Source: Candidatus Woesearchaeota archaeon
GTDB lineage: Archaea > Nanobdellota > Nanobdellia > Woesearchaeales > SKIA01
Reading direction: 5' to 3'
Length of the DNA stretch: 64,000 nt
Assembly: GCA_047602905.1 (NCBI GenBank)
Contig: JBLKOP010000001.1
Span: 26,773-90,772, forward strand
This document shows positions 2,828 to 57,705 of the stretch, piece by piece. A model generated the notes under the pieces. It was not told where the DNA came from, searched no databases, and saw only the letters and a list, made by a program, of their open reading frames with translations. Each line of letters starts with the position of its first letter. Within the stretch, counting starts at the first letter, position 1. The position numbers and the translations under genes are program-made.

Positions 2828-3961
2828 ATGAGTACGCAAGAAGAAACACGAAGAATACAAGAAGTAATCAAGAACAACGACTACAACGACACACGAGCAA
2901 GCGTACTACTACCGTACCAAGACACGACACCCATAGAACTCACCGCACAAAAATACCGAGGATGCGAAGCACTCGTAATCATAGGAATAGGAGGAAGCAA
3001 CCTAGGAACGTGGGCAGTGCATGAAGCAATACACGGAGAACTCCATAACGAAACAGCAAAAACAAAAGTATACTTTGCGGACACAACAGACGCACACCAA
3101 CTAACAAAACTACAACAACGACTAGAAACCATACAAGGAAGAACTGTATACGTAGTCATAAGCAAAAGCGGAACAACAGCAGAAACAATAGCAAACGCAA
3201 GCATACTCGTAAAGGACTGGAGTGACGCAATCATCATAACAGGAAAAAACAGCCTCCTAGACGGACTTAACGGCGCAAGCACGCTACACATACAAGAACA
3301 AATAGGAGGGCGCTACAGCGTCTTTAGCGCAGTAGGACTCCTCCCACTAGCAATACTAGGAATAAACATAAACCAACTCCTAGCAGGAGCAAGAGGAGCA
3401 CTAGAAAACCTAGAAGCAATAGCGCAACAAGTCAATAAAGAACACGAAGCAAACAAACAAATAACAGAAGCCTTCTTCTTCGCACCACTACAACGACTAG
3501 GGCAGTGGAGAAGACAACTCATAGCAGAAAGCCTAGGAAAAAACGGCAAAGGACCACTACCAACAACAAGAATAGGAAGCACAGACCTACACAGCACAGC
3601 ACAAAGAAGCCTAGACGGACCAAACGACACCTACACAACATTCATAACAGTAGAAGAAACACCAACAATACCCATACCCAACAACAAAACAAGCCAACTC
3701 GTAGAAGACCTAGCAGACAAAACCACCAAACAACTCCTAGAAGCAATACAAGAAGCAACAATGAAAGCGTATGAAGAAGCAAACAGACCCTACAAACACC
3801 TAACCCTACAAAAAATACACGAGAAAAGCATAGGAGCACTCATGCAAACAATGATGCTAGAAACAATGCTACAAGCAAACCTCCTAGGAATAAACGCGTT
3901 TGACCAACCAGCAGTAGAAAACTACAAAAAACACACCAAAGAAAACCTTAAACAACTATGA
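2828..3961 (+). CDS. pgi: glucose-6-phosphate isomerase
   Basis: GIGGSNLG, SKSGTTAET and GGRYSVFSAVG motifs; TATA about 25 bp upstream. Confidence 0.8.
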   Translation: MSTQEETRRIQEVIKNNDYNDTRASVLLPYQDTTPIELTAQKYRGCEALVIIGIGGSNLGTWAVHEAIHGELHNETAKTKVYFADTTDAHQLTKLQQRLETIQGRTVYVVISKSGTTAETIANASILVKDWSDAIIITGKNSLLDGLNGASTLHIQEQIGGRYSVFSAVGLLPLAILGININQLLAGARGALENLEAIAQQVNKEHEANKQITEAFFFAPLQRLGQWRRQLIAESLGKNGKGPLPTTRIGSTDLHSTAQRSLDGPNDTYTTFITVEETPTIPIPNNKTSQLVEDLADKTTKQLLEAIQEATMKAYEEANRPYKHLTLQKIHEKSIGALMQTMMLETMLQANLLGINAFDQPAVENYKKHTKENLKQL

Positions 3962-4696
3962 TCTACGAGTTTTTAGTGCTTCTTTAATATCAGTAATTAC
4001 ACTAAATCCATGGTAATATATTGCGCTACACAACTGAACACTGCTCGCTCCTGCGTGTACTGCTTCTTGCGCGTCTTGAGCATTCATGATGCCTCCTGAA
4101 GCAGAAAAATATGTATCAGAAAACCTTTCTGAGAGTATATGAACAAGAGTCATTGTTTCTGCTCGCAACCCTTCTCCACAACGAGAACTCTTTCCCCAAT
4201 ACAACCCAGGACTGTTAGTTGGTGAGGAATAATACACTCCTATCGTTTCAGAATCAGAAAACGTAAACCCATCAACTGCAAACGCTAGTTGATCTAATAA
4301 CGGCATTTCTTGCTCTTGACGAGCAAGCTTAAAAAGCAAAGGAACTCCGAGCACAGACCTATCTATTCCTTGAATGAACTCATTAAATGCAGAGACTTTT
4401 CTTTTAACAAATCGCCGGTATTCTTGCGTGTTCAAGTCTAAATGTTCATCGTAGAGAAGCTTAATTGGTTTCTTATGACTTCCCTTAAACCAACGACTAT
4501 TAATCTCGATAGCATCTGCTCGTAGCCTGTATACCTCATCAAACTGCTTCTCATTTCTTGGAGCGTGACTTTGAATAACTTTTGTTTTAGGACTGTATTC
4601 TTTGATATCTTCATACAACTTATTTGCTTGCTTGAGCGTAAGTATTTCTATATCTTTTTTATCAGACCAACAATTAACGCTTTGAAGCGCTCGCAT
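3956..4696 (-). CDS. dihydroorotate-dehydrogenase-like TIM-barrel protein, probably N-terminally truncated or degenerate
   Basis: C-terminal GGIMNAQDAQEAVHAGASSVQLCSAIYY resembles DHOD FMN-binding tail; ADAIEINSRWF sits where the ELNLSCPN active-site motif would be (Cys absent); 246 aa is short for DHOD. Confidence 0.4.
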   Translation of the reverse strand: MRALQSVNCWSDKKDIEILTLKQANKLYEDIKEYSPKTKVIQSHAPRNEKQFDEVYRLRADAIEINSRWFKGSHKKPIKLLYDEHLDLNTQEYRRFVKRKVSAFNEFIQGIDRSVLGVPLLFKLARQEQEMPLLDQLAFAVDGFTFSDSETIGVYYSSPTNSPGLYWGKSSRCGEGLRAETMTLVHILSERFSDTYFSASGGIMNAQDAQEAVHAGASSVQLCSAIYYHGFSVITDIKEALKTRRS

Positions 4697-4956
4697 ATCT
4701 TTTCCTTCGATTACTTCTTGATCATTTATTTCTGGAATGATATACTTTGGTGATTTTGAGTTGGTCCCTGAAAAAAGCGGTGCTTTTCCTTTTAGGATGT
4801 GTCGATCTTTTTTTCTTGGAATTGGCTCAAAGAGCGTCTATTCCTGCATCTATTGCTTTCTTTGCATGCCTAAAATTGTCAGTGAATGGCGAGGAAGCCA
4901 TCCATACGTTTCCAAAAGAAAACAACGAATCCATATAACTACCAATTAGTAGTTAT

Positions 4957-5592
4957 TTAAAAGTTTTTATGTTTTTTCTCAACACAAGAAACAATATACT
5001 CCTCGTGAATAACCTGAACAGGAAGAGAACCATCAAGAGTAACTATACGATCACTATGCATCCTAGCAAGTTCATCATAGCCCTGCTTAACAAGAGCATG
5101 AAACGAGTCGTTTTGAGACTCCATACGATCCCTCTCTCCTTTACGAGAATTCAATCTTTGAAGGCGCTCCTCTAAACTAATACTCAAATAAAACGTTACG
5201 TCAGGAACCATATCAAAAGACTCATTCATACGCTGTATCAACCCCCAATGTGGTTGTTGCTGTTGATAACGAGCAAACCCTTGATACGCAGAAGTACTAT
5301 CATAAAAACGATCCATAACAACAGTAACTCCTTGAGCAAGGTGTGGACGAATAACTTCTTCAACCATCTGAGCACGAGAAGCATTAAACAAATACAACTC
5401 AGACAAAGAACTCATATCCTCTCCGTGAAGCAACAACGAACGAATCTGCTCCCCCAAATTAGTACCTCCAGGCTCTCTACGAACAATATGATCTATGCCT
5501 TGCTTAGAAAAATACTCTTTTAGCAACTCAATTTGTGTGCTCTTACCACAACCATCAAGGCCTTCAAACGTAATTAACGGAGCAGACCTCAT
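4957..5592 (-). CDS. tmk: thymidylate kinase
   Basis: P-loop ITFEGLDGCGKST, REPGGT, DRFYDSTSAYQG. Confidence 0.85.
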   Translation of the reverse strand: MRSAPLITFEGLDGCGKSTQIELLKEYFSKQGIDHIVRREPGGTNLGEQIRSLLLHGEDMSSLSELYLFNASRAQMVEEVIRPHLAQGVTVVMDRFYDSTSAYQGFARYQQQQPHWGLIQRMNESFDMVPDVTFYLSISLEERLQRLNSRKGERDRMESQNDSFHALVKQGYDELARMHSDRIVTLDGSLPVQVIHEEYIVSCVEKKHKNF

Positions 5593-6764
5593 GAAGCCAT
5601 ACGGGGAGGAAAACCATTAATAAGTACTTTTTCTGCGCGCTGTTTAATAGCATAGTTTTCTACTACGAAATCATCTACTTCTGTCTCGTTTAGTGGATTA
5701 GAAACAACTCGTAATCTCGGTGGCTCAGCATGACTTCTTCGCCCAAGCTGCTCTAATAAATACGGGACGTGATCATAGCCAGGAGTACCCTCTTCTTCAG
5801 GAAGCTTCTTAAGCAAATCCTCAAGAACGGTGTGCGGGTGCTCTTTTCTGAGTGTATCTTGAAGCCAACGAAGATTATCTTCTTGTGCATACCAAGAAGC
5901 GCGTTTATCTGAACCAACATATATGTGGTGATCACCAATATTATGGATGAACTCTCCGGGTTTTACACCTACTTCAACAGCTATTTTTGCTGTTAATGCT
6001 GCGTATTGTGGAGGATTAAACCCTAAGCCTAAGAAATGGTCTGCGCTTCTTTGATTCATTTGCAAATCAAGGCGCTCCTCTCCAGCTCTATCAGTGTATG
6101 TGTACGCTTGAAACATGTTATGACACGGAGCAAGAGCTGCTCGTTTCAGCTTAACATCAACAGGGTTCCAAGCAGTTACTATGTGATATCTGCTCGTAGG
6201 ATCTTCTTGTAAATGAGTTACCATATCTTGAAGCTGATCAACATAAACAATTCCTTGCTCAGTTACGCCTGCAAAGTTTCTCCACTGTTCAGGATAAAAC
6301 TTACCTAGATCACCTGCCTCAGGATTATTTCCTGATAAAACAAGCTCTTCATACTCTTGTAGTGCATCCTCAAAAGCAGGAGTGTCTTTTTTGAGTTGCT
6401 TTCACTTATGATCGTCAGGAAGCTTGTTTCGATAAAAATTAAACGCGTTAGCAGTCCATATCGTCATTCCCTGCTCCAAATACCACTTCAGGTTCGTCTC
6501 GTTACGAATAAAACCCACTATTTCAGGTAGTAACTGTGATTTGTAGCCTATGGGTTTTGTTTGAGAAAGAGGAAAGCTTTCGTCACTAAGATCGTACACT
6601 GCTTGTGTACCAAAAGAACCTATGGTGTGTATAACTGTTCTACTTGCTTTTCGAAAGTTTAGCTTTGAACTCGTCAATAAATCATAGCTGTGTTGATGAT
6701 ATGCTTTGTCGTGTTTGTTTAATGAACTGTCTTCTCTTGGCTTTAACATTACTGCCCCCAACAC
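5589..6764 (-). pseudogene. thyA: thymidylate synthase ThyA interrupted by one in-frame TGA (plus strand 6402-6404)
   Basis: N-terminal ORF (6402-6764) and C-terminal ORF (5589-6224) are in the same frame, with no other stop in the 59 codons between them; conserved ThyA segments flank and span the TGA (GDLGKFYPEQWRNF, HIVTAWNP, ALAPCHNMFQAY, QRSADHFLGLGFN). Confidence 0.75.
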
Positions 6765-14587: not shown

Positions 14588-15550
14588 CTACGAGGAGCAG
14601 TAGAAATATGAGCAAACTTGCTTTAGGTGTGTGAATAGTTGCTTTTTGAATTCTTGATATTCTTGTTTGTCTATTGTTTGAAGTGATAAGTACTGTACGT
14701 CTTCTTGTGTATGTAATTCTTGATTTTGTAATTGCGTGCAGTTTTTTGTGAGCGTTTCTGTGTAGTTTTGCAGTGTTCGCTTGCTTGCTTGAATCTTTCT
14801 TATTATTTGTTGTACGGGTATTTCAAATAGGTCTAGTTGTTTGTTAAGCAAATACATGTCAAGTATGTCTCGCTCTTTTGGTTGTTCTCGTGTGAGTATT
14901 GCTCGAAATTTTTCTAGAGCTATTTCTGTTTTTGGATAGCACGGAATTGTTGGGCTGTGCAGAGTTACTCCAATAACTTGTGCTTGTTCTTGCACGCCTA
15001 GAATATCTGGAAGGTTTGGAACGGTTATTTGTACGGGCTTATTTTGAAGTTCTTCGGTAAAACTTATTTCTAACTTAATACTCTGTTTTTGGTTTGTTAT
15101 TGTAGAGATATAATGCATGTGCAGAACGTATATCGCTCGGCTATTACGTAGCTGTACGTAACGCTTGTTTGTTCTGTCATGAACGAAGTCAAGTCCTGTT
15201 CTTTGAGCTATAAGTTCTATTTCGTCAAAGAGTTCTTTGACGAGGTGTTTTATTACTCTTTCTTGTTGTTGAATGGATTCTAACTCTCGTATATCGTTGC
15301 ATTGCGGGTGTGTGAAGTCAAGATCTTCGCTGATGCGATGATACTTCAGATATGCTTTTGTGAGAAGAGTCCCTCCTTTAAACACAAGAGTTTGTAACCG
15401 TTGTATCTCCTTCTTTTTTGCTGCTTGTGCGAGTTCTGAAAGAAACAAGCTGAGTCGGTAGTCCTTCTCAAACTGTTCTTCTCCTGTGGTATATTGTCCT
15501 TGTTTTTTGAGGAATTGAATATATCGTTGTAATCGTTTTTGTGTAATCAT
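14588..15550 (-). CDS. AbiEii-like nucleotidyltransferase toxin (type IV TA / abortive infection)
   Basis: FKGGTLLTKAYLKYHRISEDLDF motif; 4-bp ATGA overlap with upstream AbiEi-like gene. Confidence 0.6.
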   Translation of the reverse strand: MITQKRLQRYIQFLKKQGQYTTGEEQFEKDYRLSLFLSELAQAAKKKEIQRLQTLVFKGGTLLTKAYLKYHRISEDLDFTHPQCNDIRELESIQQQERVIKHLVKELFDEIELIAQRTGLDFVHDRTNKRYVQLRNSRAIYVLHMHYISTITNQKQSIKLEISFTEELQNKPVQITVPNLPDILGVQEQAQVIGVTLHSPTIPCYPKTEIALEKFRAILTREQPKERDILDMYLLNKQLDLFEIPVQQIIRKIQASKRTLQNYTETLTKNCTQLQNQELHTQEDVQYLSLQTIDKQEYQEFKKQLFTHLKQVCSYFYCSS

Positions 15551-18171: not shown

Positions 18172-18293
18172 TGAGCCCAGAGGGATTTGAACCCTCAACC
18201 ACTGGTACACTCAGAGACCTAAGTGCTAACACTAAGGAAATTCCTTATTGCCTCATATAAGACCAGCGCTCTACCAGGTTGAGCTATGGGCTC
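18172..18293 (-). tRNA. tRNA-Ile (anticodon TAT) with a 48-nt intron at the canonical 37/38 position
   Basis: Acceptor GAGCCCA/TGGGCTC, D-stem GCTC/GAGC, anticodon stem CTGGT/ACCAG, loop CTTATA then intron TGAGGCAATAAGGAATTTCCTTAGTGTTAGCACTTAGGTCTCTGAGTG, T-arm GAGGG-TTCAAAT-CCCTC. Confidence 0.7.
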
Positions 18294-20898: not shown

Positions 20899-21666
20899 CT
20901 ATTTGTTTGCTTGTAGGCGTTCTTTTACTTCTGAGAGAGTAAAGTACTTCGCATTTACTTGCATAACCTCATGAAAAGAAACTGGCTCTTGTAGAAGAGC
21001 TACCATGTCCTCATCCCATCTGTTGTAGAGTTTTTTTGCTTGCGAAAACATACGTATAACTAGCTCATCAGTGTTTTCATGCGCGCACTTTGTTGTTACT
21101 AATTGCATTGATATAGGAAGTTGGTGCTTGATTATTTGGTATATATCGTAGTGGTCTCGTGGCTTGTTTCGTTGTATAGTTGCAGCAACCTTTTCTGCGA
21201 TAAGCTCTTGTTTATCTAGACAAAATACTTCGTAAACAGGTATGTTCTCGTAGTAGTGAGATATTTGTTGTTTTTGCGGCTTCTTAAGTAGTGTTGCGTT
21301 CTCATTAAGATCAACGTATATTGTGTCTGTTGTTTGCGTGAATGTTTCGTACTCGCAGATGATACGAACAAACCCTTTCACGTCTTTTCCTGTTGTTATT
21401 GCTTGTATGAACGGTATTTGCCTGAGTAGTTGTTGTATGTCTTTGCGTGCTTGTTTGAGATTTGTTACAGTAAAATCTATGTCTTCTGAGAGCCTTGCAT
21501 GATTAAGAAATATTTTGTTTAGTGCAGTTCCTCCCTTAAAGAAAATGTTTTTTACATCTTTGATTGCGTAGAGTACTTGTGTGAGGTAGTAGTCTTTGAG
21601 GATTAGTCGCTGTGCGAATCCTGTTTTTGCTGCTGTTTGTATTATACGTTTCTTTTCTTCATCCAT
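20899..21666 (-). CDS. AbiEii-like nucleotidyltransferase toxin, second copy
   Basis: FFKGGTALNKIFLNHARLSEDIDF; start taken at MDEEKK because the annotated 90-aa N-terminal extension is low-complexity and overlaps the upstream gene. Confidence 0.6.
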   Translation of the reverse strand: MDEEKKRIIQTAAKTGFAQRLILKDYYLTQVLYAIKDVKNIFFKGGTALNKIFLNHARLSEDIDFTVTNLKQARKDIQQLLRQIPFIQAITTGKDVKGFVRIICEYETFTQTTDTIYVDLNENATLLKKPQKQQISHYYENIPVYEVFCLDKQELIAEKVAATIQRNKPRDHYDIYQIIKHQLPISMQLVTTKCAHENTDELVIRMFSQAKKLYNRWDEDMVALLQEPVSFHEVMQVNAKYFTLSEVKERLQANK

Positions 21667-22223
21667 TGTTTGGTTTTTTCTTTTGGTTCTATTCGTATGT
21701 TGTGTCCTTGTATTGTGTTGTTTTGTGCTTCTTGGAGTCTTTTTTTTGTCGTTTTTTTGAATTTGTATCTCGTGTTTAGTATTGTTGTTGTGTTGTTTCT
21801 TTTGTTTGTGTAAATATCTACTTGTTGAGGTATTTGGTCTGTTAGATTGTAATAATTTGCTGCTGCCCACCCTCCTATGAAGTAGTCTTGTGAGTTCATC
21901 ATCTCGTCTGCTATAATAAATTCGTGCTCGTACCATGTGTTGTTTGGTGCTTGTATTGGTAGGAGATAGTATTTGTTTTTGTTCAGTTTGAGGATGCGCT
22001 TTTTTTGTAGAAGACGGTGTATTATGTAATAGAGTTGTTGTTTGTTTGTTGCGTGGTGTTTGATGTCTTCTTGTGTGAAGAAGTACTGGTTGTTGAACTC
22101 AAGTTCTTGAATGATGCGTACTTCTCGTTGAGAAAGAGAGGAAATATCATTATTTTTTGACATAATCAAAGATAAGTGATGTTTATTTATAAATGCAGGG
22201 GTTTTTTGTGTCTGTGCAAACAT
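21642..22223 (-). CDS. AbiEi-like antitoxin, second copy
   Basis: Upstream partner of AbiEii-like gene, 25-bp overlap; TATA about 29 bp upstream. Confidence 0.45.
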   Translation of the reverse strand: MFAQTQKTPAFINKHHLSLIMSKNNDISSLSQREVRIIQELEFNNQYFFTQEDIKHHATNKQQLYYIIHRLLQKKRILKLNKNKYYLLPIQAPNNTWYEHEFIIADEMMNSQDYFIGGWAAANYYNLTDQIPQQVDIYTNKRNNTTTILNTRYKFKKTTKKRLQEAQNNTIQGHNIRIEPKEKTKQWMKKRNV

Positions 22224-30984: not shown

Positions 30985-32458
<1,474 letters not shown>

Positions 32459-32564
32459 TCTTTTTTTTTCAACAAAGAAAATCAAGAAAACGATGAACAA
32501 GTTCATCAAACAAAAACACGTTGCGTGTCACTCAAACCCTTTCCCATTCACCAACCACACGATC

Positions 32565-32637
32565 GGGCTCTTAGCTCAGTTGGTAGAGCGCCCGCTTTGC
32601 AAGCGGGAGGCCACGGGTTCGACTCCCGTAGAGTCCA
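32565..32637 (+). tRNA. tRNA-Ala (anticodon TGC) in the 16S-23S spacer
   Basis: GGGCTCT acceptor with G3:U70, anticodon loop CTTTGCAAG. Confidence 0.85.
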
Positions 32638-32877
32638 TTTACGCCACGCGCGTCAAAAAAGACCGTGTGGTATAATGAAAAACCGATCACGACGTAACAA
32701 TCGTGATCTCAGACAGAGATGCAAGTTCACTGCAGATTGTACCTACAATCAACGTACCAAGCAGTGTTCTTCACAACGAATTGCATTCATGACGTCACGC
32801 ATACACAAACCACAATATCCTGGAAATAACACCAAATTTTAGTAACGCAAGTTACTAAAAGACGCTAAACACTACAC

Positions 32878-35765
32878 TAGGTGTTTAGCGGATTGGAGGA
32901 ATGTTTCTTGGTGGATAGCTTGGCTTATCAAATGCGATGAAGGACGTGGCAAGCTGCGAAAAGGTTGGGCGAGGCGCAAGCAGCCTACGAACCCAACATA
33001 TCCGAATGCGACATCGCCAAAGAATACCGACAGGTAAGCAAACGCGGGGAATTGAAACGTCTTAGTACCCGCAGGAAAAGAAATCAACAGAGATACCCTT
33101 ATTAGCAGCGAGCGAAAAGGGCAAAGGGCAAACTGAATCCTCTGCAGAAATGCAGTTGGAAATGTAGTGTATAGGGACCTCACAACGGTACCTCTCTTTG
33201 AGATATGAAGTCCGCTGGAAAGCGGCAGCACAGAGGGTGAAACTCCCGTAATAGAATCAAAGAAGGACCAGAGGAATCCCGGAGTAAGGCGTCTTGGTTT
33301 TGGCGTCTGAAGATAGGAGTCATCAACTTCTAACCCTAAATAATCGATAAGTCCGATAGAGAACAAGTACCGTGAGGGAAAGCTGAAAAGAACCCGTGAC
33401 AGGGAATGAAAAGACCTTGAAACCAAGAAATTATAGTGAAGTACGCAACTAACGAGGTTGTGTACTGTTCGTTTTGAATAACGAGCCCGGGAGTGCGTCT
33501 CTGTGGCGAGGAAAACTCGACACGAGTGATCCGAAGCGAAAGCGACAGCTTGCAGCTTGCAAGAAGCGAGGTATGAAAGTGCCTGGAGTCACAGGGATTC
33601 GACCCGAAACCGGTCGAACTAGGCGTGGGTAGGGTGAAGCGTCGGTAAAACGACGTGGAGGCCCGAAGAGGTGCTGTGAACAAGCGTTCTCCTAACCTGC
33701 GTCTAGGGGTGAAAAGCCAATCGAGACCGGTGATAGCTGGTTCCTACCAAAGTTGACCGTAGTCAAGCCTTGAGCGAGACCGTATTCGCGGTAGAGATAC
33801 GGATTGGGGATGCAGGGGAAGAAATTCCTCGGTTCCTTGTCCAACTCCGAATGCGAATACATCGTAGACCTCAGGAGACGGTGGCACGGGGTAAGCCTGT
33901 GTCACGAGAGGGAAACAACCCAGATGAATGTTAAGGTCCCAAAGTACTGTTTAAGTGTTAACGGGTGAAGATTGTTGGTGTCCATAGACAGCGAGGAGGT
34001 TGGCTTAGAAGCAGCCACCCTATAATAAGTGCGTAACAGCTTACTTGTCAAGGGCGCCAGTATCGAAAATGGACGGGGCTAAATCAGTCACCGATACATT
34101 CAGCAGAAATGCGGTAGGTAGGCGTAGTGGTCGGGTAGAAGCGTGTTCGTGAGATCACGTGGACTAGCCACTAACGAAAATCCGGGTAATAGTAGGATCT
34201 GAGCATAGTGAGAATCTATGTCACCGAAAGGGCAAGGGTTCCTTGACACTGTACATCAGTTAAGGGTTAGTCGATCCTAATTCCCATCCTAACTGGATGA
34301 GAGAAAGAAAGGGAAACAGGTTAATATTCCTGTACCAAAGTACTAGACGGCGACGTGAAGTCGTATAGCCGACGCTTTGGGCTAAGAAAACACAGTCAAA
34401 TGTGTTAAGCAAGACATGTCTTTGGAGTGCTGTCATGGCGAGAAAAAGACAAAATTGTGATGAGTGCTTCGTATGAAGCATTTTTCTGATGCCTAGAGCC
34501 CATGAAAAGGAAATACGAAGCGACGTACTTTGATCGTACCCAGAACCGGCACAGGTGCCCCTAGGTTAGAAGCCTCAGGTGTGAAAGGATACTGTAGTTA
34601 AGGGAATTCGGCAAATTAGCCACGTGCCTTCGGCATAAGTGGTCCCTGCGCTTGTAGCAATGCGAGTGCAGGGTGCAATAACAAAGGAGTTCCGACTGTT
34701 TAACAAAAACTTAACTGGCTGCTAACCCGCAAGGGCTTGTATAGCCGGTGACGTCTGCCCAGTGCCAATACCTAAAAGTCCCGTTCAAGGGGCCTAAGGG
34801 CTGGTAAACGGCGGGGGTAACTATAACTCTCTTAAGGTAGCGAAATGCCTTGCCGTTTAATTGACGGCCTGCATGAATGGCGTAACGAGATCTCCACTGT
34901 CCCTAACTACACCCTTCCGAAAATTCCTCCTGGTGCAAAGGCCAGGGACTTCCAGTGGGAAGTGAAGACCCCGTGAAACTTTACTGTAACCTGTTGCTGT
35001 GATGTGGCTTTTGACGTGAAGGCTAGGTAGTAGCAATCGAAGGGCGCGCGCTAGCGCGTCTGGATGCGAAAGATGGGACACTACCCTTCAACAACTGCAT
35101 TACTTACCTCCAAAGAGAGGGACACCAGCAGGCGGACAGTTTGGCTGGGATGGCACACCGTCGAAAATGTATCGATGGTGCCCAAAGGTTGGCTCAGACG
35201 GGTCAGAAATCCGTCGTAGAGTGCAAGAGCAAAAGCCAGCCTAACTGGGATCTCAACATGACAGATCTCAGTACAGAAATGTAGGTCTAGCGAACCCCTG
35301 TAGCTCCTTGATGGGGCTCAGGTATGACCGAAAAGTTACTCCGGGGATAACAGAGTTGTCCCGCCCGAGAGCTCGTATCGACGGCGGGGCTTGCTACATC
35401 GATGTCGGCTCTTCCTATCCTGGCCGTGCAGAAGCGGCCAAGGGTGAGGGTGTTCACCTATTAAAAGGGATCGTGAGCTGGGTTCAGAACGCTGTGAGGC
35501 AGTTTGTTTATTATCTACTGGAAGTGTGGACTATCTGAGAGGAAGGATCGTTTAGTACGAGAGGAACGATGGTTCGTCGCCACTGGTCTATCGGTTGTCT
35601 TACAAGGCAGGCCGAGCAGCTACGCGATATCTGATAAGCGCTGAAAGCATCTAAGTGCGAAGCAGTCCTCGAAAAGAGATAGCACAACTCCGCGCAGAAC
35701 ACGCGGTTGATGGGACTGGGATGTACGCACCAAGCTTTTGCGAGGTGTTTAGTCCGCGGTTTCCA
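32878..35765 (+). rRNA. 23S rRNA (about 2.9 kb; ends approximate)
   Basis: GATGAAGGACGTGGCAAGCTGCGAAAAG near 5' end; sarcin-ricin loop region GTACGAGAGGAAC present; GC-rich relative to flanks. Confidence 0.85.
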
Positions 35766-35913
35766 ACAGGTTGGTTACCAATCTTTTGGTTTTAGTTCCT
35801 TTTGGATATTGTGGTTTGTGTATGCGTGACTTCATTTTTTTTCTTATTTTTTTGTTGTTTCTTCGGTTTTTTCTTCGTTACTTTTGTAAAGGCGTGTTTC
35901 TTTTTTTCTTGTT

Positions 35914-39041: not shown

Positions 39042-40886
39042 TTGGTCGTTTTTTCTCTGAGAGAAATGGTTTTAGAGCAATACTTCTTATCACCAAACTG
39101 GGCGTGGGCACTACTCGCACTTATTCCTCTTATTCTGCTGTACTTACTTAAGCCTAAACCAAAGAAACAAACCATTCCTAGTCTCATGTTTTTCTTACAA
39201 GACGCAAAGAAGAAACGCTTACAAAACTTTCTTCGTCGATTCCTCCCTAACCTCCTATTATTACTACAACTCCTTATCTTACTTGGACTAGCTGCTGCTC
39301 TTATGCAACCCTACATTAGCGTTCCTGTCGTTTCTAGCGCTCAAAACACCGTAATCGTTCTTGACTCAAGCGCTTCTATGCACGCAGTTGATTCATCAGG
39401 TGTTCGCTACGAGCAAGCAATCACTCAATTACTGCCGTTACTTGGCTCCTCTAACACCATTATCTTAGCTGGTGTGAGCGCGGAGATTGTTGTAGAAGAA
39501 GCATCTGCTCGAGAAGCACAGCAATTCCTGCGATCATGGACTCCTAGTCACCAACCAACACGCTTGCGAGTAGCTTTACAAGAAGCTCTTACGCGCGTTG
39601 ATGAAAACACCGTGGTTCTTATCGCAAGTGATTTTATCGATACAGAAGTAGGCAACGGACCTGCTGAGGCGCTTGGTGCTTTACGCGCACGAGCAGCACA
39701 AGTTGTTGAGGTACGCGTGGGCGAGGAGAACACAAACAACATCGGCATAGTGGATGTGGCAGCAACGGATACGACAACAACCATTACTGTGCAGAACTTT
39801 GATGAACAAACACGAGAAACACAAGCGTGTATTGCGGGTACGTGCAGAGAGTTTGTTCTTGAAGCGCAAGAAACGCAGCAATGGACGTTTAACACTCCTG
39901 CAGGAACAAGCGAGGTGCGCTTATCTCATGAGGACGCGTTTAGCGTTGATGACGTAGCGTACATTAGCTCTGAAGAGCAACGAGTACTACGCGTGCTTGT
40001 CGTTACAAACAGCGACTGGCAGTCTCATGAACTCGCGCAATTCCTAGCAGCGCTTAGTGAGAGCACAAACCTTGCTGTAGAGGTAGAAATAAACACTCCT
40101 CCTCGTCTTGTGGACGTAAACCACGACCTCATAATCTTTTATGAAGTAGGTTTATCAACAGTTGTTGAACGAACGTTTCGAGACGTAGAGTCTCGTGTGC
40201 GAGCAGGGGATTCTGCAGCGATTATCTTGTACCAGCAAGGACTCTTTGGGCTGCCGTTTGGTAGCTTACTTGCTCACGAGTACGAAGGAGTAGGAGGTGC
40301 TTCTGCGGTTATTAACACCAACAACCAGCAACGACTCGTAGGCCTTGATTACGGCTACACACCAACACACCCAATTACTCGCTTAACACAACAATCCTTA
40401 GTACTCGCTACTTCTCAAGAAGAAAACCCTCTCATTACAGTTACCAACCTTGGAGCAGGCAGAGTACTGTATTACGGTCTTTCTGGAGAAGCAGGGTTTT
40501 CTGCAACTCCAGACTACGCGCTTTTCTTTAAGGAAGCTATTGATTACTCACTAAACCGCTTAAGTACTTCTTCGCGTACGTTACGAACACAAACAGTACT
40601 TGGAGGAGTAGGGCAAGCAAGAACTCCTAGTGGAGAAGTAGTTTCTGGACGAGTAGCGCTTTTTGAAGCAGGGTTTTATCAAACAAACCAAGGAGTGTTC
40701 GCCGCTAACCTTGCTAACGCTGCAGAAAGCAACATCGCTGTACGAGCATCTACGCAGACAAGTACGTCTGTAGGTGCTGAAATTGTTTCTTCACAGCCAA
40801 GAAACCTCTCGCAATGGCTTATTCTTCTCGTGCTCGTATTACTTCTTCTTGAATTACTCTACGTAAAGTACCGGGGGGATCTCTAA
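39042..40886 (+). CDS. BatA-like membrane-anchored von Willebrand factor A protein
   Basis: N-terminal TM + basic stretch, MIDAS IVLDSSASM, C-terminal TM. Confidence 0.55.
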   Translation: MVVFSLREMVLEQYFLSPNWAWALLALIPLILLYLLKPKPKKQTIPSLMFFLQDAKKKRLQNFLRRFLPNLLLLLQLLILLGLAAALMQPYISVPVVSSAQNTVIVLDSSASMHAVDSSGVRYEQAITQLLPLLGSSNTIILAGVSAEIVVEEASAREAQQFLRSWTPSHQPTRLRVALQEALTRVDENTVVLIASDFIDTEVGNGPAEALGALRARAAQVVEVRVGEENTNNIGIVDVAATDTTTTITVQNFDEQTRETQACIAGTCREFVLEAQETQQWTFNTPAGTSEVRLSHEDAFSVDDVAYISSEEQRVLRVLVVTNSDWQSHELAQFLAALSESTNLAVEVEINTPPRLVDVNHDLIIFYEVGLSTVVERTFRDVESRVRAGDSAAIILYQQGLFGLPFGSLLAHEYEGVGGASAVINTNNQQRLVGLDYGYTPTHPITRLTQQSLVLATSQEENPLITVTNLGAGRVLYYGLSGEAGFSATPDYALFFKEAIDYSLNRLSTSSRTLRTQTVLGGVGQARTPSGEVVSGRVALFEAGFYQTNQGVFAANLANAAESNIAVRASTQTSTSVGAEIVSSQPRNLSQWLILLVLVLLLLELLYVKYRGDL

Positions 40887-43301
40887 ATGGTTTCTTTTCT
40901 TAACGCATGGGTTCTTCTTAGTATACCCGTAGTTCTTCTTTTTATCCTCTGGCTTGTAAGAAAAGACTTTGTTTCTTTTGATACGCGCTTCTCAGAAGAA
41001 GTAGTTGCTCGCAAAAAACATGCTCGTATGCGTCGCTTTGTTCTTATTACAAGAACAATTATTTTCACGTGCTTACTACTTGCTCTCGCAACTCCTGTGC
41101 TCACAACAGATTTTTTTAGCGAGACAGACCCGCGCATCGTAGTCTTAGTGGATGAGAGTGAGAGCATGAACGTGTTTGCCGCTACAAACCTTATTGAAGA
41201 ACTCTCTGAGCTTGCGCGCGTAGAACAACACGTAATAGCAACAGGAAACACAAGCGCACTAGGAGACGCTATTCTTACGCACATAGGAGTAGGAAGTCAC
41301 GTAGTACTCATTAGTGATGGGCGTCTTACAAGCGGAGCTAGTCTTGCTAGTGTTGCTAGCTTTGCAGAAAACCAGCAAGCAACAATTAACGCAGTAGAGC
41401 TTCCTAGGCGTTTTGAGGACGCAAGCGTGCAGGTAGAGGTTGAGAGCCTTGTTATTGAGAATATACAAACACCTATTCATGTACGCGTACACACAACTGA
41501 TGGCGTTGCTAGAGCAGTACAAGTACTTGTTAATAACGAAGTAGTTGATGAGCGAGAAACAAGCACTTCTTTTACGCTCTCACAAGCATTTAGTTCTCGT
41601 GAGAACACCGTAACTGCTCGTATACTTACAGAGGATGAGTTCATGAGTAACAATGAGTTTACCGCAACAGTAACAGCGACTACTAAGCCACGAGTACTTC
41701 TTATCGCTTCTCGAAGTAGTGCTTTTGAAGGAGTACTTAAGCAACTCTACAGCGTGGATACAAAAACAACAATTCCTACTAGCTTAGATAAGTATGCAGC
41801 AATAGTTGTTTTTGACACACCAAGAAGCGCGCTAGACGAGCAAGCACTTGTTGAGTACGTAACCGCAGGAGGAGGACTTATAGTTATAGGAGGGGAGAGG
41901 AGCTTTGAGTTTGGAGGGTACCGTAATAGTTTACTTGAGAGTCTACTTCCTGTACGCGTAGGAGTGGGAGCGAGCGCTGCTCCAAGCGCAAACATCGTCT
42001 TAGCAATAGATATGAGTAACCGAGCGCTTGGAAGCGTTGCTTTTGTTGACGGAGAACAAATACGTGCAAGTCAAGAAGTACAGAGCGTACAAAAAGCGCT
42101 CGCAATAGACTTACTTAATAGGCTGAACAAAAACAACCGAGTAGGAGCACTAGCGTTCACCTATCCGTTACCAGACCAACACTCGTGCACAGGAGCATGC
42201 GTACTTGCACCCATACGAAGCTTAGGAGAGCACCAAGAAGAACTCATAGACCGAGTAGCTCGCGTAAACATTACTGGAGGAACAAGTATAAGCACAGGAG
42301 TGCAAGGAAGCATACAATTACTTGAGCAAGTAAGCGGCTCACAAAACATTGTTCTTATTAGTGACGGAGTAACAGGTGTTGAGGACGCTAACCAAGCGCT
42401 TAACGCAGCAAGAACGTTTGCTGCGAGAGGAGGAACGCTCTACGCAGTACACGTAGGAAACAGCGAGCAAGGACTAGGGTTTTTGCAAGAACTCGCGACA
42501 GCAACAGGAGGAGTGGCTTTTGTAGCAGGAGCAAACAATCGCTTAGCAGTCTTGTTTGGTGAGCCACAAGAAAGCGAAGGAGAAGACGCTTTCGCACTTA
42601 TTCCCGTAGACGAGTACCATTTCATTACGCGAGGAATTACTCCAAGCGCAACCCTATTTGGAAGCAACCAAGTACTTGTTAAGCGAGGAGCGAGGCAACT
42701 TCTTGCAACAAACAACGCACAACCAGTACTTACTGTGTGGAACTACGGAGTAGGGCGTGTAGGAGCAATTACTGCGTTTAGTAACGACGACTTAGGAGCG
42801 CTACTACACGCTCCTAACAGCGAGTACATCAGCCGCCTAGGAAACTGGGCTATAGGACCACTAGAGCGAATACAACAAACACTTATTCTTGTAGAAGACG
42901 TTCGCGAGGGAGAAGAAGCGCTTGTCGTTGCTCGAGGAGAACGACCGCTTCTTGAAGCAGTAGCGTTTAGCAGAGTAGCTCGTAACGAGTACGAAGCAAA
43001 CCTGCCTGCACGCAACCAAGGAGTACACGAAGTACTCGGTACTCGCTACGCAGTAAACTACCCCTCAGAGTTTGACGCACTAGGAATAAGTGATGAGCTA
43101 CGAGAAGCAGTTAATCTGAGCGGAGGAGACATGTACGCTCCTAACGACGCACAACAAATACTTAAGCACGCAACCACGCTTAGCGAACTCAAAGACATAC
43201 GTGAAGAACCACTATACTGGCCGTTTGTACTCGCAGCTCTTATCGTGTTCTTACTGGAAGTGCTCATTCGACGAGTAACGAGTATGCGCAAACACTCATA
43301 A
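40887..43301 (+). CDS. large membrane-anchored double-vWA protein
   Basis: N-terminal TM, MIDAS motifs VLVDESESM and LAIDMSNRA, C-terminal TM LYWPFVLAALIVFLLEVLI. Confidence 0.55.
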   Translation: MVSFLNAWVLLSIPVVLLFILWLVRKDFVSFDTRFSEEVVARKKHARMRRFVLITRTIIFTCLLLALATPVLTTDFFSETDPRIVVLVDESESMNVFAATNLIEELSELARVEQHVIATGNTSALGDAILTHIGVGSHVVLISDGRLTSGASLASVASFAENQQATINAVELPRRFEDASVQVEVESLVIENIQTPIHVRVHTTDGVARAVQVLVNNEVVDERETSTSFTLSQAFSSRENTVTARILTEDEFMSNNEFTATVTATTKPRVLLIASRSSAFEGVLKQLYSVDTKTTIPTSLDKYAAIVVFDTPRSALDEQALVEYVTAGGGLIVIGGERSFEFGGYRNSLLESLLPVRVGVGASAAPSANIVLAIDMSNRALGSVAFVDGEQIRASQEVQSVQKALAIDLLNRLNKNNRVGALAFTYPLPDQHSCTGACVLAPIRSLGEHQEELIDRVARVNITGGTSISTGVQGSIQLLEQVSGSQNIVLISDGVTGVEDANQALNAARTFAARGGTLYAVHVGNSEQGLGFLQELATATGGVAFVAGANNRLAVLFGEPQESEGEDAFALIPVDEYHFITRGITPSATLFGSNQVLVKRGARQLLATNNAQPVLTVWNYGVGRVGAITAFSNDDLGALLHAPNSEYISRLGNWAIGPLERIQQTLILVEDVREGEEALVVARGERPLLEAVAFSRVARNEYEANLPARNQGVHEVLGTRYAVNYPSEFDALGISDELREAVNLSGGDMYAPNDAQQILKHATTLSELKDIREEPLYWPFVLAALIVFLLEVLIRRVTSMRKHS

Positions 43302-43337
43302 ACGTTTATAAATACTTGTTAAGCTATACAGAGTACT

Positions 43338-43799
43338 ATGGCAGTAATGAAAAAACAAGTAAACATGTTCTTGCTCTTTCTTATCATACTTGGTATTGGG
43401 TTACTGGCAGGAGTAACTATCCTGTACCAAGGACAACTCTCTACGTTTAGTAACGACTTAGTGCAACGAAACCAAGAACTTGCTGTGTGCACAGAAGAAC
43501 TTGAAGAAACCCAACAAGCACTGAGTACTGCGCAAAGAGAACTAAGCACAAACATCGGAGATGTAGATAGAACAGTAGCGCTACTTGAAGAAAACGAGGA
43601 AGTTATTGATGAGCAACAAACACGTATTAGCGCCTTAGAAAACGAGGTTAACCGCTTAGAAGTGCGCTTATCAGAAGAGCAAACACGAGTAACGCAATTA
43701 CAAACAACTATTAGTACACGAGACCAAACAATCCTCACGCTGCAAAACCGAATCGAAGACTTAGAAGAGGATTTACAAGCCTGCCAGGATGCTTCATGA
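43338..43799 (+). CDS. membrane-anchored coiled-coil protein
   Basis: N-terminal TM then heptad-rich Q/E/L sequence; TATA 28 bp upstream. Confidence 0.35.
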   Translation: MAVMKKQVNMFLLFLIILGIGLLAGVTILYQGQLSTFSNDLVQRNQELAVCTEELEETQQALSTAQRELSTNIGDVDRTVALLEENEEVIDEQQTRISALENEVNRLEVRLSEEQTRVTQLQTTISTRDQTILTLQNRIEDLEEDLQACQDAS

Positions 43800-44587
43800 G
43801 ACAAGCAAAGAAACTCTTTAACGAACTACGATACGAAATCATCAAGGCTCTTGTAGCAAAAGAATTCCTTAACGCAGCAATGCTTTTCTTCGCCCTGCTC
43901 ATACCGTTATCACTTATGAGCATGAGCTTCTTGTACGCACTCATACCAACTGCTCTTTTCTTCGTAATAAAACTCTACCGAGCATTCAAGGATAACACCA
44001 TACAAAAACTTGAGCAAGGAAACCCAGAAGTACATGAACTCCTACACACAGCGTATGAGCACCAAGAAGTAGATAGCTTAATGGTGCAAGGACTCATGTA
44101 TGACTTACAAAAAAAGCTCGCAACAGTAAGCACAGGAGTACTCATAGACCCAAGACGAGCAATAGGAAAAGTGTTTGTTATAGCAATACTCGCACTCATA
44201 CCGCTAGCGATATACACAGTAACTCCTTCGCTTATACAAGCAAACCCGCTTGCAGACATAGACTTTAGTGCTTTAGCAATGAGAGGAGAGAGGTTTTTTT
44301 TAGAACAAACAACACCAGTAAATCTTAGTGAGGAAGGAATAAGCTATGGAGATATTAATCTTGCTTTGCTTGGCGAAGACGAGCTGGAACTAGCGCTAAG
44401 AAGTAGTGCGGGAGCAATGGACTCTTCTAATGAGCAAGAACTACGCGAAAGAGAATTCGCTCAAGGAAGGGTAAGTGGAGAAATAGAAGTAGTGGAGTCA
44501 GAGTATGATAGCAGCGCACGAGTGTATGATGAGAGCGAAGTAGCGCTTATTACTCGCTATAGTTGCAAGCAACGAGGAGACTGCTAA
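43796..44587 (+). CDS. membrane protein, unknown function
   Basis: Several TM helices; overlaps previous gene by 4 nt. Confidence 0.35.
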   Translation: MRQAKKLFNELRYEIIKALVAKEFLNAAMLFFALLIPLSLMSMSFLYALIPTALFFVIKLYRAFKDNTIQKLEQGNPEVHELLHTAYEHQEVDSLMVQGLMYDLQKKLATVSTGVLIDPRRAIGKVFVIAILALIPLAIYTVTPSLIQANPLADIDFSALAMRGERFFLEQTTPVNLSEEGISYGDINLALLGEDELELALRSSAGAMDSSNEQELREREFAQGRVSGEIEVVESEYDSSARVYDESEVALITRYSCKQRGDC

Positions 44588-44626
44588 AAAACTATCTTTA
44601 TAAACCAAGCTAGTTGTAAACTACTC

Positions 44627-45580
44627 ATGGTAGAGCAAGTAAAGAACCTGGAGAAACTCAAAGAAACCTTTGGCAACGTAGCACAAGAAGTAAGCAAAAC
44701 CATTGTAGGACAACAAGAAGTTATCGAGCACATCCTCGTAGCGATACTCACCGGAAGCAACGCACTTCTAGAAAGCCCTCCAGGACTAGGAAAAACTACG
44801 CTGATAAAAAGTTTAGCGCAAGTACTTGACTTAGACTTTAGCAGGATACAAAACACTCCTGATCTCATGCCAAGTGACATTACAGGAACGTACGTGATAG
44901 AGGAGCACGAAGGAAAAAAGACGTTTATTTTTCAGAAAGGACCGTTATTTGCAAACATCGTTCTTGCAGACGAAATTAACCGTGCAACACCAAAAACACA
45001 AGCAGCACTTCTAGAAGCGATGCAAGAAAAACAAGTAACAGTAGGAACAGAAACGTTTTATTTAGAAGAACCGTTCTTCGTACTCGCAACACAAAACCCT
45101 ATTGATAACGAGGGCGTCTATCCCTTGCCTGAAGCACAAGTAGATCGTTTCTTACTCAAAATCGTTGTGCCGTACCCGACAGCAGAAGAAGAACTAGAAA
45201 TAGTTAATCGGTTCACGACAGCAGCAGAGATAACGCCAGTAAACAAACTCTTAGGGGAGAACAGCATTAAGCTCTTACAAAAACTTACTCGACAAGTACC
45301 TATAGCAGATGATATCAAGCAACGAGCAGTAAAACTTGTACAACAAACAAGAAATACGCCGGAGCGTATTGAGTACGGAGCAAGCCCGAGAGCAAGCATA
45401 GGACTCATACTCGCAGCTAAAGCACACGCGCTTATTCAGGGAAGAAAATTTGTTAGTAGCAAGGACGTAGACGCAATGGCGCTACCAGTTCTGCGGCACA
45501 GAATTATCGCTAGCTTTAGTGCGGAGAGAGAAGGAAAAACTACTGATGACCTCATCAAAGAACTCCTTGACAAGCTATAA
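44627..45580 (+). CDS. MoxR-family AAA+ ATPase
   Basis: Walker A ESPPGLGKT, Walker B VLADEINRA; TATA 22 bp upstream. Confidence 0.8.
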   Translation: MVEQVKNLEKLKETFGNVAQEVSKTIVGQQEVIEHILVAILTGSNALLESPPGLGKTTLIKSLAQVLDLDFSRIQNTPDLMPSDITGTYVIEEHEGKKTFIFQKGPLFANIVLADEINRATPKTQAALLEAMQEKQVTVGTETFYLEEPFFVLATQNPIDNEGVYPLPEAQVDRFLLKIVVPYPTAEEELEIVNRFTTAAEITPVNKLLGENSIKLLQKLTRQVPIADDIKQRAVKLVQQTRNTPERIEYGASPRASIGLILAAKAHALIQGRKFVSSKDVDAMALPVLRHRIIASFSAEREGKTTDDLIKELLDKL

Positions 45581-46456
45581 ATGACTCGCAAGAACAACGG
45601 AATTGATTACGAAGACTTTCTTAAACAACTCGACCGCTTTCGTATAGTACTAAAAAAGAACGTAAGTAGCAAGTACCAAGGAGCAAGAAAAACTACTATA
45701 GCAGGAAGCGGATTAACGTTTAAAGACTATAAAAGCTACGTTCCAGGAGATGATTTTCGAAACCTCGACTGGAGAGTGTATGCGCGAACCAACAAGCTGT
45801 ACGTGCGGCGATACGAGGAAGAACGAGACTTAACAGTGCACATCATCGTTGATGCGAGCGCAAGCATGGATTTTGGAGTGCCAAGCAAGTACGAGTACGC
45901 AACGCTACTCGGAGTAGGGTTTGCGTACCTAGCGCTTAAGAACAACGAAAAATTTGATTTCAGCACGTTTGCAGAAGAAATGAGTCCTGTACGTGCAAAG
46001 AAAGGAAGAAAACAACTCCTCGCACTTCTCGAGTACCTTACTCAATCACGCTTAGATGGAAAAACGGCTTTTCAAGAAAGCCTAGAGAGTGCGCGCAAAA
46101 GCATAAGTAGCAAGAGCTTAGTTATTATTATCAGCGATTTCTTGTATGAGCCAGCAAGCGTGCAAGAAACCCTTACTCGATTCAGAAAAAGCACTGTTTT
46201 GTGCATACAAGTCCTTGATAAACAAGAAAAACACCTTAGTATACAAGGAGACATGATCCTTGAGGACGCAGAAGAAAAAACGACGCTACGAACCTTTATT
46301 ACGCGAAGAGTAAAAAAAGAGTATCAAGAAAGCCTAGAAACGCACCTAGACAAGCTACGAGTGGCTTGTGAGCAAACACGAGCGGGTTTTGTAAGTGTAG
46401 GAACAGACGAAGAAATCTTTGATGCATTCTTTAGCGCGTATCAAAAACTACGATAA
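45581..46456 (+). CDS. DUF58-family (vWA-like) protein, MoxR partner
   Basis: GLTFKDYKSYVPGDDFRNLDWRVYARTNKLYVRRYEEER and IIVDASASM. Confidence 0.7.
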   Translation: MTRKNNGIDYEDFLKQLDRFRIVLKKNVSSKYQGARKTTIAGSGLTFKDYKSYVPGDDFRNLDWRVYARTNKLYVRRYEEERDLTVHIIVDASASMDFGVPSKYEYATLLGVGFAYLALKNNEKFDFSTFAEEMSPVRAKKGRKQLLALLEYLTQSRLDGKTAFQESLESARKSISSKSLVIIISDFLYEPASVQETLTRFRKSTVLCIQVLDKQEKHLSIQGDMILEDAEEKTTLRTFITRRVKKEYQESLETHLDKLRVACEQTRAGFVSVGTDEEIFDAFFSAYQKLR

Positions 46457-57587: not shown

Positions 57588-57705
57588 GCGGATGTAGCTC
57601 AGCCTGGTTAGAGCACTACGCTCATATTGATGAGCACTGAGATCAAGTTATTGATTGATGACAGGAGATACGTAGGGGTCCGGAGTTCAAATCTCCGCAT
57701 CCGCA
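57588..57705 (+). tRNA. tRNA-Met (anticodon CAT, elongator or Ile2-type) with about 43-nt intron
   Basis: Acceptor GCGGATG/CATCCGC, anticodon stem CTACG/CGTAG, loop CTCATA then intron; TATA 30 bp upstream; T-run downstream. Confidence 0.7.

Follow-up and report, generated by a model that had tools for sequence, protein, structure and literature searches.

A single TGA at an invariant tryptophan codon interrupts the thymidylate synthase gene of a Woesearchaeota archaeon and is probably a recently fixed nonsense mutation

Loss-of-function alleles of thyA, the thymidylate synthase gene, are known from bacteria as thymidine-dependent variants selected by antifolates. Many bacterial genes that carry in-frame stops are translated at a low level (PMC9122581), and purifying selection often acts on such genes (PMC7918605). 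Of the stop codons, UGA leaks most and is decoded as tryptophan (PMC9122581), and UGA followed by A is described there as a classic leaky context in Escherichia coli (PMC9122581, citing Engelberg-Kulka 1981); in organisms that use code 4, tRNA-Trp has a 4-bp anticodon stem (PMC13092985). Here we describe a thyA gene that is interrupted by one in-frame TGA, within a 64,000-nucleotide stretch of a Woesearchaeota genome (hereafter, the window; features of the locus are collected in Table 1). A preliminary description of this DNA had offered three readings (a very recent pseudogene, a sequencing or assembly error, and programmed stop-codon readthrough), of which the first fits best. We put a probability of roughly 70% on a nonsense mutation, recently fixed, in a module that is dispensable or redundant; any residual enzyme would then be supplied by near-cognate tRNA-Trp readthrough.

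Table 1. Features of the interrupted thyA gene and its neighbours (positions are those of the window).
Feature	Position	Strand	Evidence or remark
TATA-like box TTATTAAAA	6768..6776	minus	19-27 nt upstream of the thyA ATG
thyA (thymidylate synthase, 386 codons plus stop)	5589..6749	minus	PF00303 match and start chosen by homology
N-terminal thyA segment, 115 codons	6405..6749	minus	independent gene calls, 115/120-aa ORF on 20+9 Logan contigs
Premature stop TGA at the Trp116 codon	6402..6404	minus	context CAT AAG TGA AAG CAA, codon read directly
C-terminal thyA segment, 270 codons	5592..6401	minus	carries catalytic Cys209 and dUMP-binding residues
ATGA overlap of the thyA TGA stop and the tmk ATG	5589..5592	minus	homologues all end in MAS here
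tmk (dTMP kinase, 211 aa), intact	4957..5592	minus	PF02223, E = 1e-49, over the full length
DHOD-family gene, frameshifted	3956..4934	minus	annotated ORF 3956-4696

The interrupted gene encodes a recognizable and otherwise complete thymidylate synthase. Pfam family PF00303 matched it once, across the stop (E = 4e-60; residues 33-371, profile positions 16-259 of 266), solved PDB ThyA chains match the product at E = 8e-43, and 25 uninterrupted homologues of 385-431 aa share 50-75% identity with it. Direct reading of the codons, together with the single Pfam match spanning both pieces, bears out the earlier statement that one in-frame TGA at 6402-6404 parts two thyA pieces in the same frame; the codon-usage score of the N-terminal segment is positive. 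Equally sound was the statement that the conserved residues and the ALAPCH motif are intact: the counterparts of E. coli R21, E58, W80, Y94, R126, C146, H147, Q165 and R166, and likewise of S167, D169, N177, H207 and Y209, are all kept, the catalytic cysteine motif (A/P)PCH and the dUMP/folate-binding residues are present and invariant in the clade alignment, and both GDLGKFYPEQW and ALAPCH are unbroken and invariant across the archaeal ThyA clade. What is missing is an open frame, with TGA at codon 116 of a gene that runs uninterrupted in the 25 close homologues and in eight related DNA loci. Translation most likely begins at the ATG at 6749 rather than at the GTG at 6764 taken in the preliminary description, given that homologues open with M-[LIQ]-EPR.

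The closest homologues carry Woesearchaeota or Nanoarchaeota labels in their source databases; protein identity to the nearest relative is 75%, and all available copies of the window's own thyA are 100% identical. Members of this DPANN ThyA clade are about 386 aa long, have an L. casei-type small-domain insert and about 65 extra residues after the H-I-Y motif, keep a C-terminal MAS throughout, and carry N101 and Y188 clade-wide in place of E. coli W83 and R127. The family is rare, with only five loci in GTDB species representatives and one in JGI metagenomes.

The position of the stop was initially thought to be a non-conserved one. In the protein alignment, however, its column holds Trp in 25/25 close homologues, and the equivalent codon is TGG in 8/8 related DNA loci with colinear flanks; a comparison with orthologues had been proposed as a check for a sense codon at the site, and it thus returns Trp, encoded by TGG. 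Trp116 lies in the small-domain insert, which is present in S. aureus/L. casei-type ThyA and absent from E. coli ThyA, and this is probably why the site was first taken as non-conserved. Given TGG in the relatives, the lesion amounts to a single G-to-A transition, and the gene has a stop where its orthologues have a sense codon, as a nonsense pseudogene should. Such TGG-to-TGA changes make up 7 of the 183 possible single-base nonsense changes in thyA (7 of 39 among transitions). Apart from the internal stop, we found no private change at otherwise invariant columns of the alignment and no rate acceleration in thyA (Tajima counts 21/22, 32/26 and 22/21). The relaxed selection and further decay expected of a pseudogene are therefore not seen here, which is compatible with a very recent event, and the lack of further damage in thyA points the same way. 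None of the relatives scanned shares the stop (five GTDB loci, one JGI metagenome locus and two IMG/VR loci; 0 interrupted), with the GTDB representatives not including the source species and the viral ThyA matches from IMG/VR being distant (25-30% identity).

The surroundings of thyA combine intact and damaged genes. As the preliminary description had stated, tmk is whole, and its product is deposited at NCBI as a dTMP kinase (MFT4249769.1). Because the sequence upstream of tmk has no TATA-like or Shine-Dalgarno (SD)-like motif of its own, tmk probably relies on the thyA transcript and on termination-reinitiation coupling, a process described in archaea (PMC6728339). The putative thyA promoter looks intact, judging by its TATA-like box, and similar boxes stand about 25 nt upstream of the ATG at other window genes. 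Across the window, an SD-like motif precedes only 7/63 ORFs, and several of nine upstream regions inspected, that of thyA included, have a TATA-like box about 20-27 nt before the ATG, a pattern that suggests that leaderless mRNAs are common in this genome.

On the other side of tmk lies a weak match to the DHO_dh family that is plainly frameshifted: residues 1-35 of its homologues are encoded at 4934-4830 and residues 42-346 at 4837-3968, in different frames, and a conserved V-L-K-S strand is missing. Homologues are 322-366 aa long, and NCBI annotates only the 246-aa remainder (hypothetical protein ACMXYD_00160). The preliminary description was therefore right that this DHOD-like neighbour is damaged; its further suggestion of a decaying pyrimidine-metabolism patch says more than the evidence supports, as the homologues are unlinked to thyA and tmk in other genomes. 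We likewise considered whether the DHOD-like gene and thyA are functionally linked and set the idea aside, since the DHOD-like homologues sit in unrelated neighbourhoods. No other broken genes were found in the window, where overlapping ORF pairs, examined as possible frameshifted genes, shared no family.

Just outside the window start (L021, 13261-17301) is a run consisting of UDG, a 378-aa gene, a dNK/TMPK-like kinase (235 aa), a second tmk (204 aa) and an integrase. In a relative (L010) the gene order is integrase-thyA-tmk-dNK-like-x-UDG-SNF2; in the matching slot of this genome the second tmk is present, adjoined by the dNK-like kinase, and thyA, which relatives carry there, is absent, the thyA-tmk pair lying 9 kb away in inverted orientation. 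The second tmk is 60% identical to the thyA-linked tmk of L010, whereas the tmk beside thyA here is only 47% identical to it. This layout points to a rearrangement, or to a duplicated or acquired module. The second tmk gives the genome a redundant capacity for dTMP phosphorylation, and the dNK-like kinase is a candidate for salvage; taken with the frameshifted DHOD-like gene, the two suggest local decay and redundancy around thyA.

Under the reading of a recently fixed nonsense mutation, a G-to-A transition would have converted the TGG codon of invariant Trp116 to TGA in an archaeon that uses the standard code. Ribosomes would then mostly terminate at codon 116, presumably through the archaeal release factor aRF1, and the 115 residues released would not include the catalytic cysteine, leaving thymidylate synthase lost or reduced to a trace level. 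With thyA free of secondary lesions and acceleration, we infer the loss of functional ThyA from the stop, that is, from the sequence. The gene would lie in a locally decaying, partly redundant segment and is probably dispensable through salvage of thymidine nucleotides, and the stop would be tolerated where dTMP can be obtained in that way. Occasional misreading of UGA by the ordinary tRNA-Trp would rebuild wild-type ThyA, and this restoration may explain how the nonsense allele could drift to fixation. One observation sits awkwardly with a pseudogene: apart from its stop, thyA is perfect, as a still-functional gene would look.

An alternative that we regard as unlikely yet deserving of real weight is that thyA is a functionally maintained leaky-stop gene (a 'pseudo-pseudogene') in which near-cognate tRNA-Trp(CCA) reads UGA116 as Trp at a frequency sufficient to meet a modest cellular demand for ThyA, the allele being a hypomorph under continuing purifying selection that possibly lowers expression. 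The stop replaces a Trp codon exactly, so that tRNA-Trp, by reading through it, would yield the wild-type enzyme again; thyA has no further lesion, shows no rate acceleration and retains its catalytic residues and an intact promoter-like box; an A occupies position +4; and under a random-knockout model the prior for a TGG-to-TGA change is only 4-18%. TGG-to-TGA is thus rare among the possible nonsense changes, is the only one that near-cognate tRNA-Trp could repair completely, and is followed here by A, a coincidence that tips the balance modestly from a random knockout towards an allele that is tolerated or leaky. Against maintenance, orthologues have no stop here, no stimulatory structure was found, the neighbouring DHOD-like gene is plainly broken, the second tmk and the dNK-like kinase suggest redundancy, and the available copies span too little evolutionary time to reveal selection acting since the mutation. 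The sequence TGA AAGCAA, moreover, also terminates an essential class II aminoacyl-tRNA synthetase gene in the window (CAA TGA AAGCAA, with the same downstream hexamer), and a context shared with a genuine terminator does not mark the thyA site for readthrough. The narrower proposition that ordinary tRNA-Trp decodes UGA116 as Trp at a physiologically useful rate in this DPANN archaeon seems to us slightly less likely again.

Programmed readthrough, as distinct from such leakiness, gains no support from the locus. Orthologues have TGG in place of a conserved stop, the RNA fold downstream of the internal TGA is not significant (z = -1.29; 21/200 shuffles fold as well), the AAGCAA context is not specific to the site, and no SECIS or other Rfam element was detected in thyA or its 3' region, either at the gathering threshold or at E values up to 1.

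The possibility of a sequencing or assembly artefact, in which the true genome would read TGG, draws on the one-base difference from all relatives and was rejected as highly improbable. Nine Logan assemblies (runs SRR324568xx and SRR281545xx), retrieved with the protein of neighbouring tmk as query, match the window at 100% identity along 1-11.6 kb, all copies representing one clonal population, such that identity demonstrates reproducibility and not evolutionary persistence. TGA is present in every Logan assembly that spans the site, and thus in two accession series, and gene calls place the two thyA fragments on 20+9 and 24 contigs. The internal TGA is outside any homopolymer, and no full-length version of this ThyA with W, R, G or C at the site was found among about 15 billion proteins. 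In addition, the thyA fragments are missing from NCBI proteins, whereas the flanking proteins of the same metagenome-assembled genome (MAG), MFT4249768.1 and MFT4249769.1, encoded on a contig of 179 kb, are there, which fits annotation of thyA as disrupted. With no intact allele on record at the assembly level, the internal TGA is genuine and fixed in this clonal population.

We consider it about as improbable that the two thyA pieces are translated separately, through reinitiation, and assemble into an active split ThyA. The break falls in the surface small-domain insert, outside the core, and termination-reinitiation coupling is known in archaea (PMC6728339). The ORF list agrees, though, with the earlier observation that the 59 codons past the stop contain no start, be it ATG, GTG or TTG; the first such codon is the ATG at 6224, and reinitiation there would omit the invariant GDLGxFYPxQW cofactor/substrate segment. 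No relative has a split thyA, which also answers the suggestion that orthologues might reveal two genuinely separate genes.

That this DPANN lineage has reassigned UGA to Trp across its genome, as in code 4, or has begun to do so, is less probable still. A Trp-to-TGA change does match the direction of all known UGA-to-Trp reassignments, and TGA is the least used stop in the window, ending 11 of 63 non-overlapping ORFs (39 end in TAA and 13 in TAG). Yet a single in-frame TGA stands against 142 TGG codons in these 63 ORFs, and in a codon-usage scan thyA was the only gene in the 64 kb with TGA between two coding-like segments, the remaining hits being antisense shadows of larger genes. TGA also serves as a terminator at conserved domain ends: an M48 peptidase gene stops with TGA at profile position 184/186, the class II aminoacyl-tRNA synthetase gene does so at profile position 307/308, and thyA itself ends in TGA directly after the clade-wide MAS, as do three relatives. 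Global recoding was rejected on the stop-codon tables, the codon-usage scan and the Pfam end-of-domain checks; neither the many in-frame TGAs nor the loss of TGA as terminator that mark codes 4 and 25 are found in the window, and the organism uses the standard code. The preliminary description had judged a global code change unlikely because TGA acts as a normal stop elsewhere, and the stop tables and scan of the window agree.

A search for further in-frame TGAs and for suppressor or selenocysteine tRNAs, proposed earlier for the whole genome, was conducted at the scope of the window, where no in-frame TGA besides that of thyA and no UGA-reading tRNA came to light. The seven window tRNAs are Glu, Gly, Ala (two), Ser, an intron-containing Ile(UAU) and an intron-containing tRNA with anticodon CAU; 0/7 reads UGA, no tRNA(UCA) was found in the 82 kb examined, and tRNA-Trp was seen neither in the window nor in a further 18 kb of flanking sequence. 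Two tRNAs missed by ARAGORN were considered as suppressor candidates and discarded, as they are the Ile(UAU) and CAU tRNAs and not tRNA-Trp. Both were found by Rfam, at 18172-18293 (minus) and 57588-57705 (plus); one has anticodon UAU (tRNA-Ile, reading AUA directly) and a 49-nt intron, the other anticodon CAU and a 45-nt intron. Selenocysteine insertion at UGA116 is the least credible alternative: UGA is the Sec codon in some archaea, but homologues have Trp here and not Cys or Sec, the site is non-catalytic, and no SECIS element was found in thyA or its 3' region.

Several other features of the window were recorded. An rRNA operon on the plus strand (30986-35786) comprises 16S (30986-32456), tRNA-Ala(UGC) and 23S (32888-35786) genes, and the window is archaeal; 5S rRNA was not detected in the window. 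The minus strand has, within 7 kb, two genes for nucleotidyltransferase toxins of the AbiEii family (type IV toxin-antitoxin; 14588-15550 and 20899-21936), each preceded by a small ORF without a family match. A MoxR-VWA system on the plus strand (39042-46456) consists of a BatA/VWA/DUF58/MoxR-AAA gene cluster, in which VWA proteins of 614 aa and 804 aa carry the recently defined DUF7406, DUF7407 and DUF7408 domains.

If the preferred reading of a recently fixed nonsense mutation is correct, the locus shows a host-dependent archaeon at the outset of losing a gene. In annotation, thyA is best marked as disrupted instead of being called as two genes; for metabolic reconstruction, the organism probably depends on salvage of thymidine or dTMP. 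Should UGA116 instead be read as Trp to useful effect, the biology of leaky UGA and pseudo-pseudogenes would extend to Archaea, where a single release factor, aRF1, makes the competition for UGA differ from that in bacteria. The extreme version, if true, would be the first snapshot of the ambiguous-intermediate stage of UGA-to-Trp reassignment; we know of no such stage described in Archaea.

Compared with known systems, the locus shares with UGA-to-Trp reassignment (code 4) the relation between codon and amino acid, and differs from it in being a single site in a genome in which TGA terminates other genes. As in bacterial thyA loss alleles, a point mutation would inactivate thyA, with tmk and salvage functions kept; here, by contrast, the organism is an uncultured archaeon with no evidence of antifolate exposure. 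Bacterial pseudo-pseudogenes and leaky-UGA genes (PMC9122581; PMC7918605) offer a close parallel, with UGA at a former Trp codon, A as the next base and a gene that is otherwise intact. The bacterial cases depend on competition with RF2, whereas termination in this thyA would fall to archaeal aRF1, to which the bacterial rules on leakiness and context may not apply. With the nonsense pseudogenes of reduced or host-dependent prokaryotic genomes the locus shares a single premature stop, a disrupted neighbour, the lack of an NCBI protein and a small-genome DPANN host. It differs from them in its extreme youth, thyA having no secondary lesions, no rate acceleration and an intact promoter-like box. 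Secondary decay aside, the locus is probably a further instance of a nonsense pseudogene.
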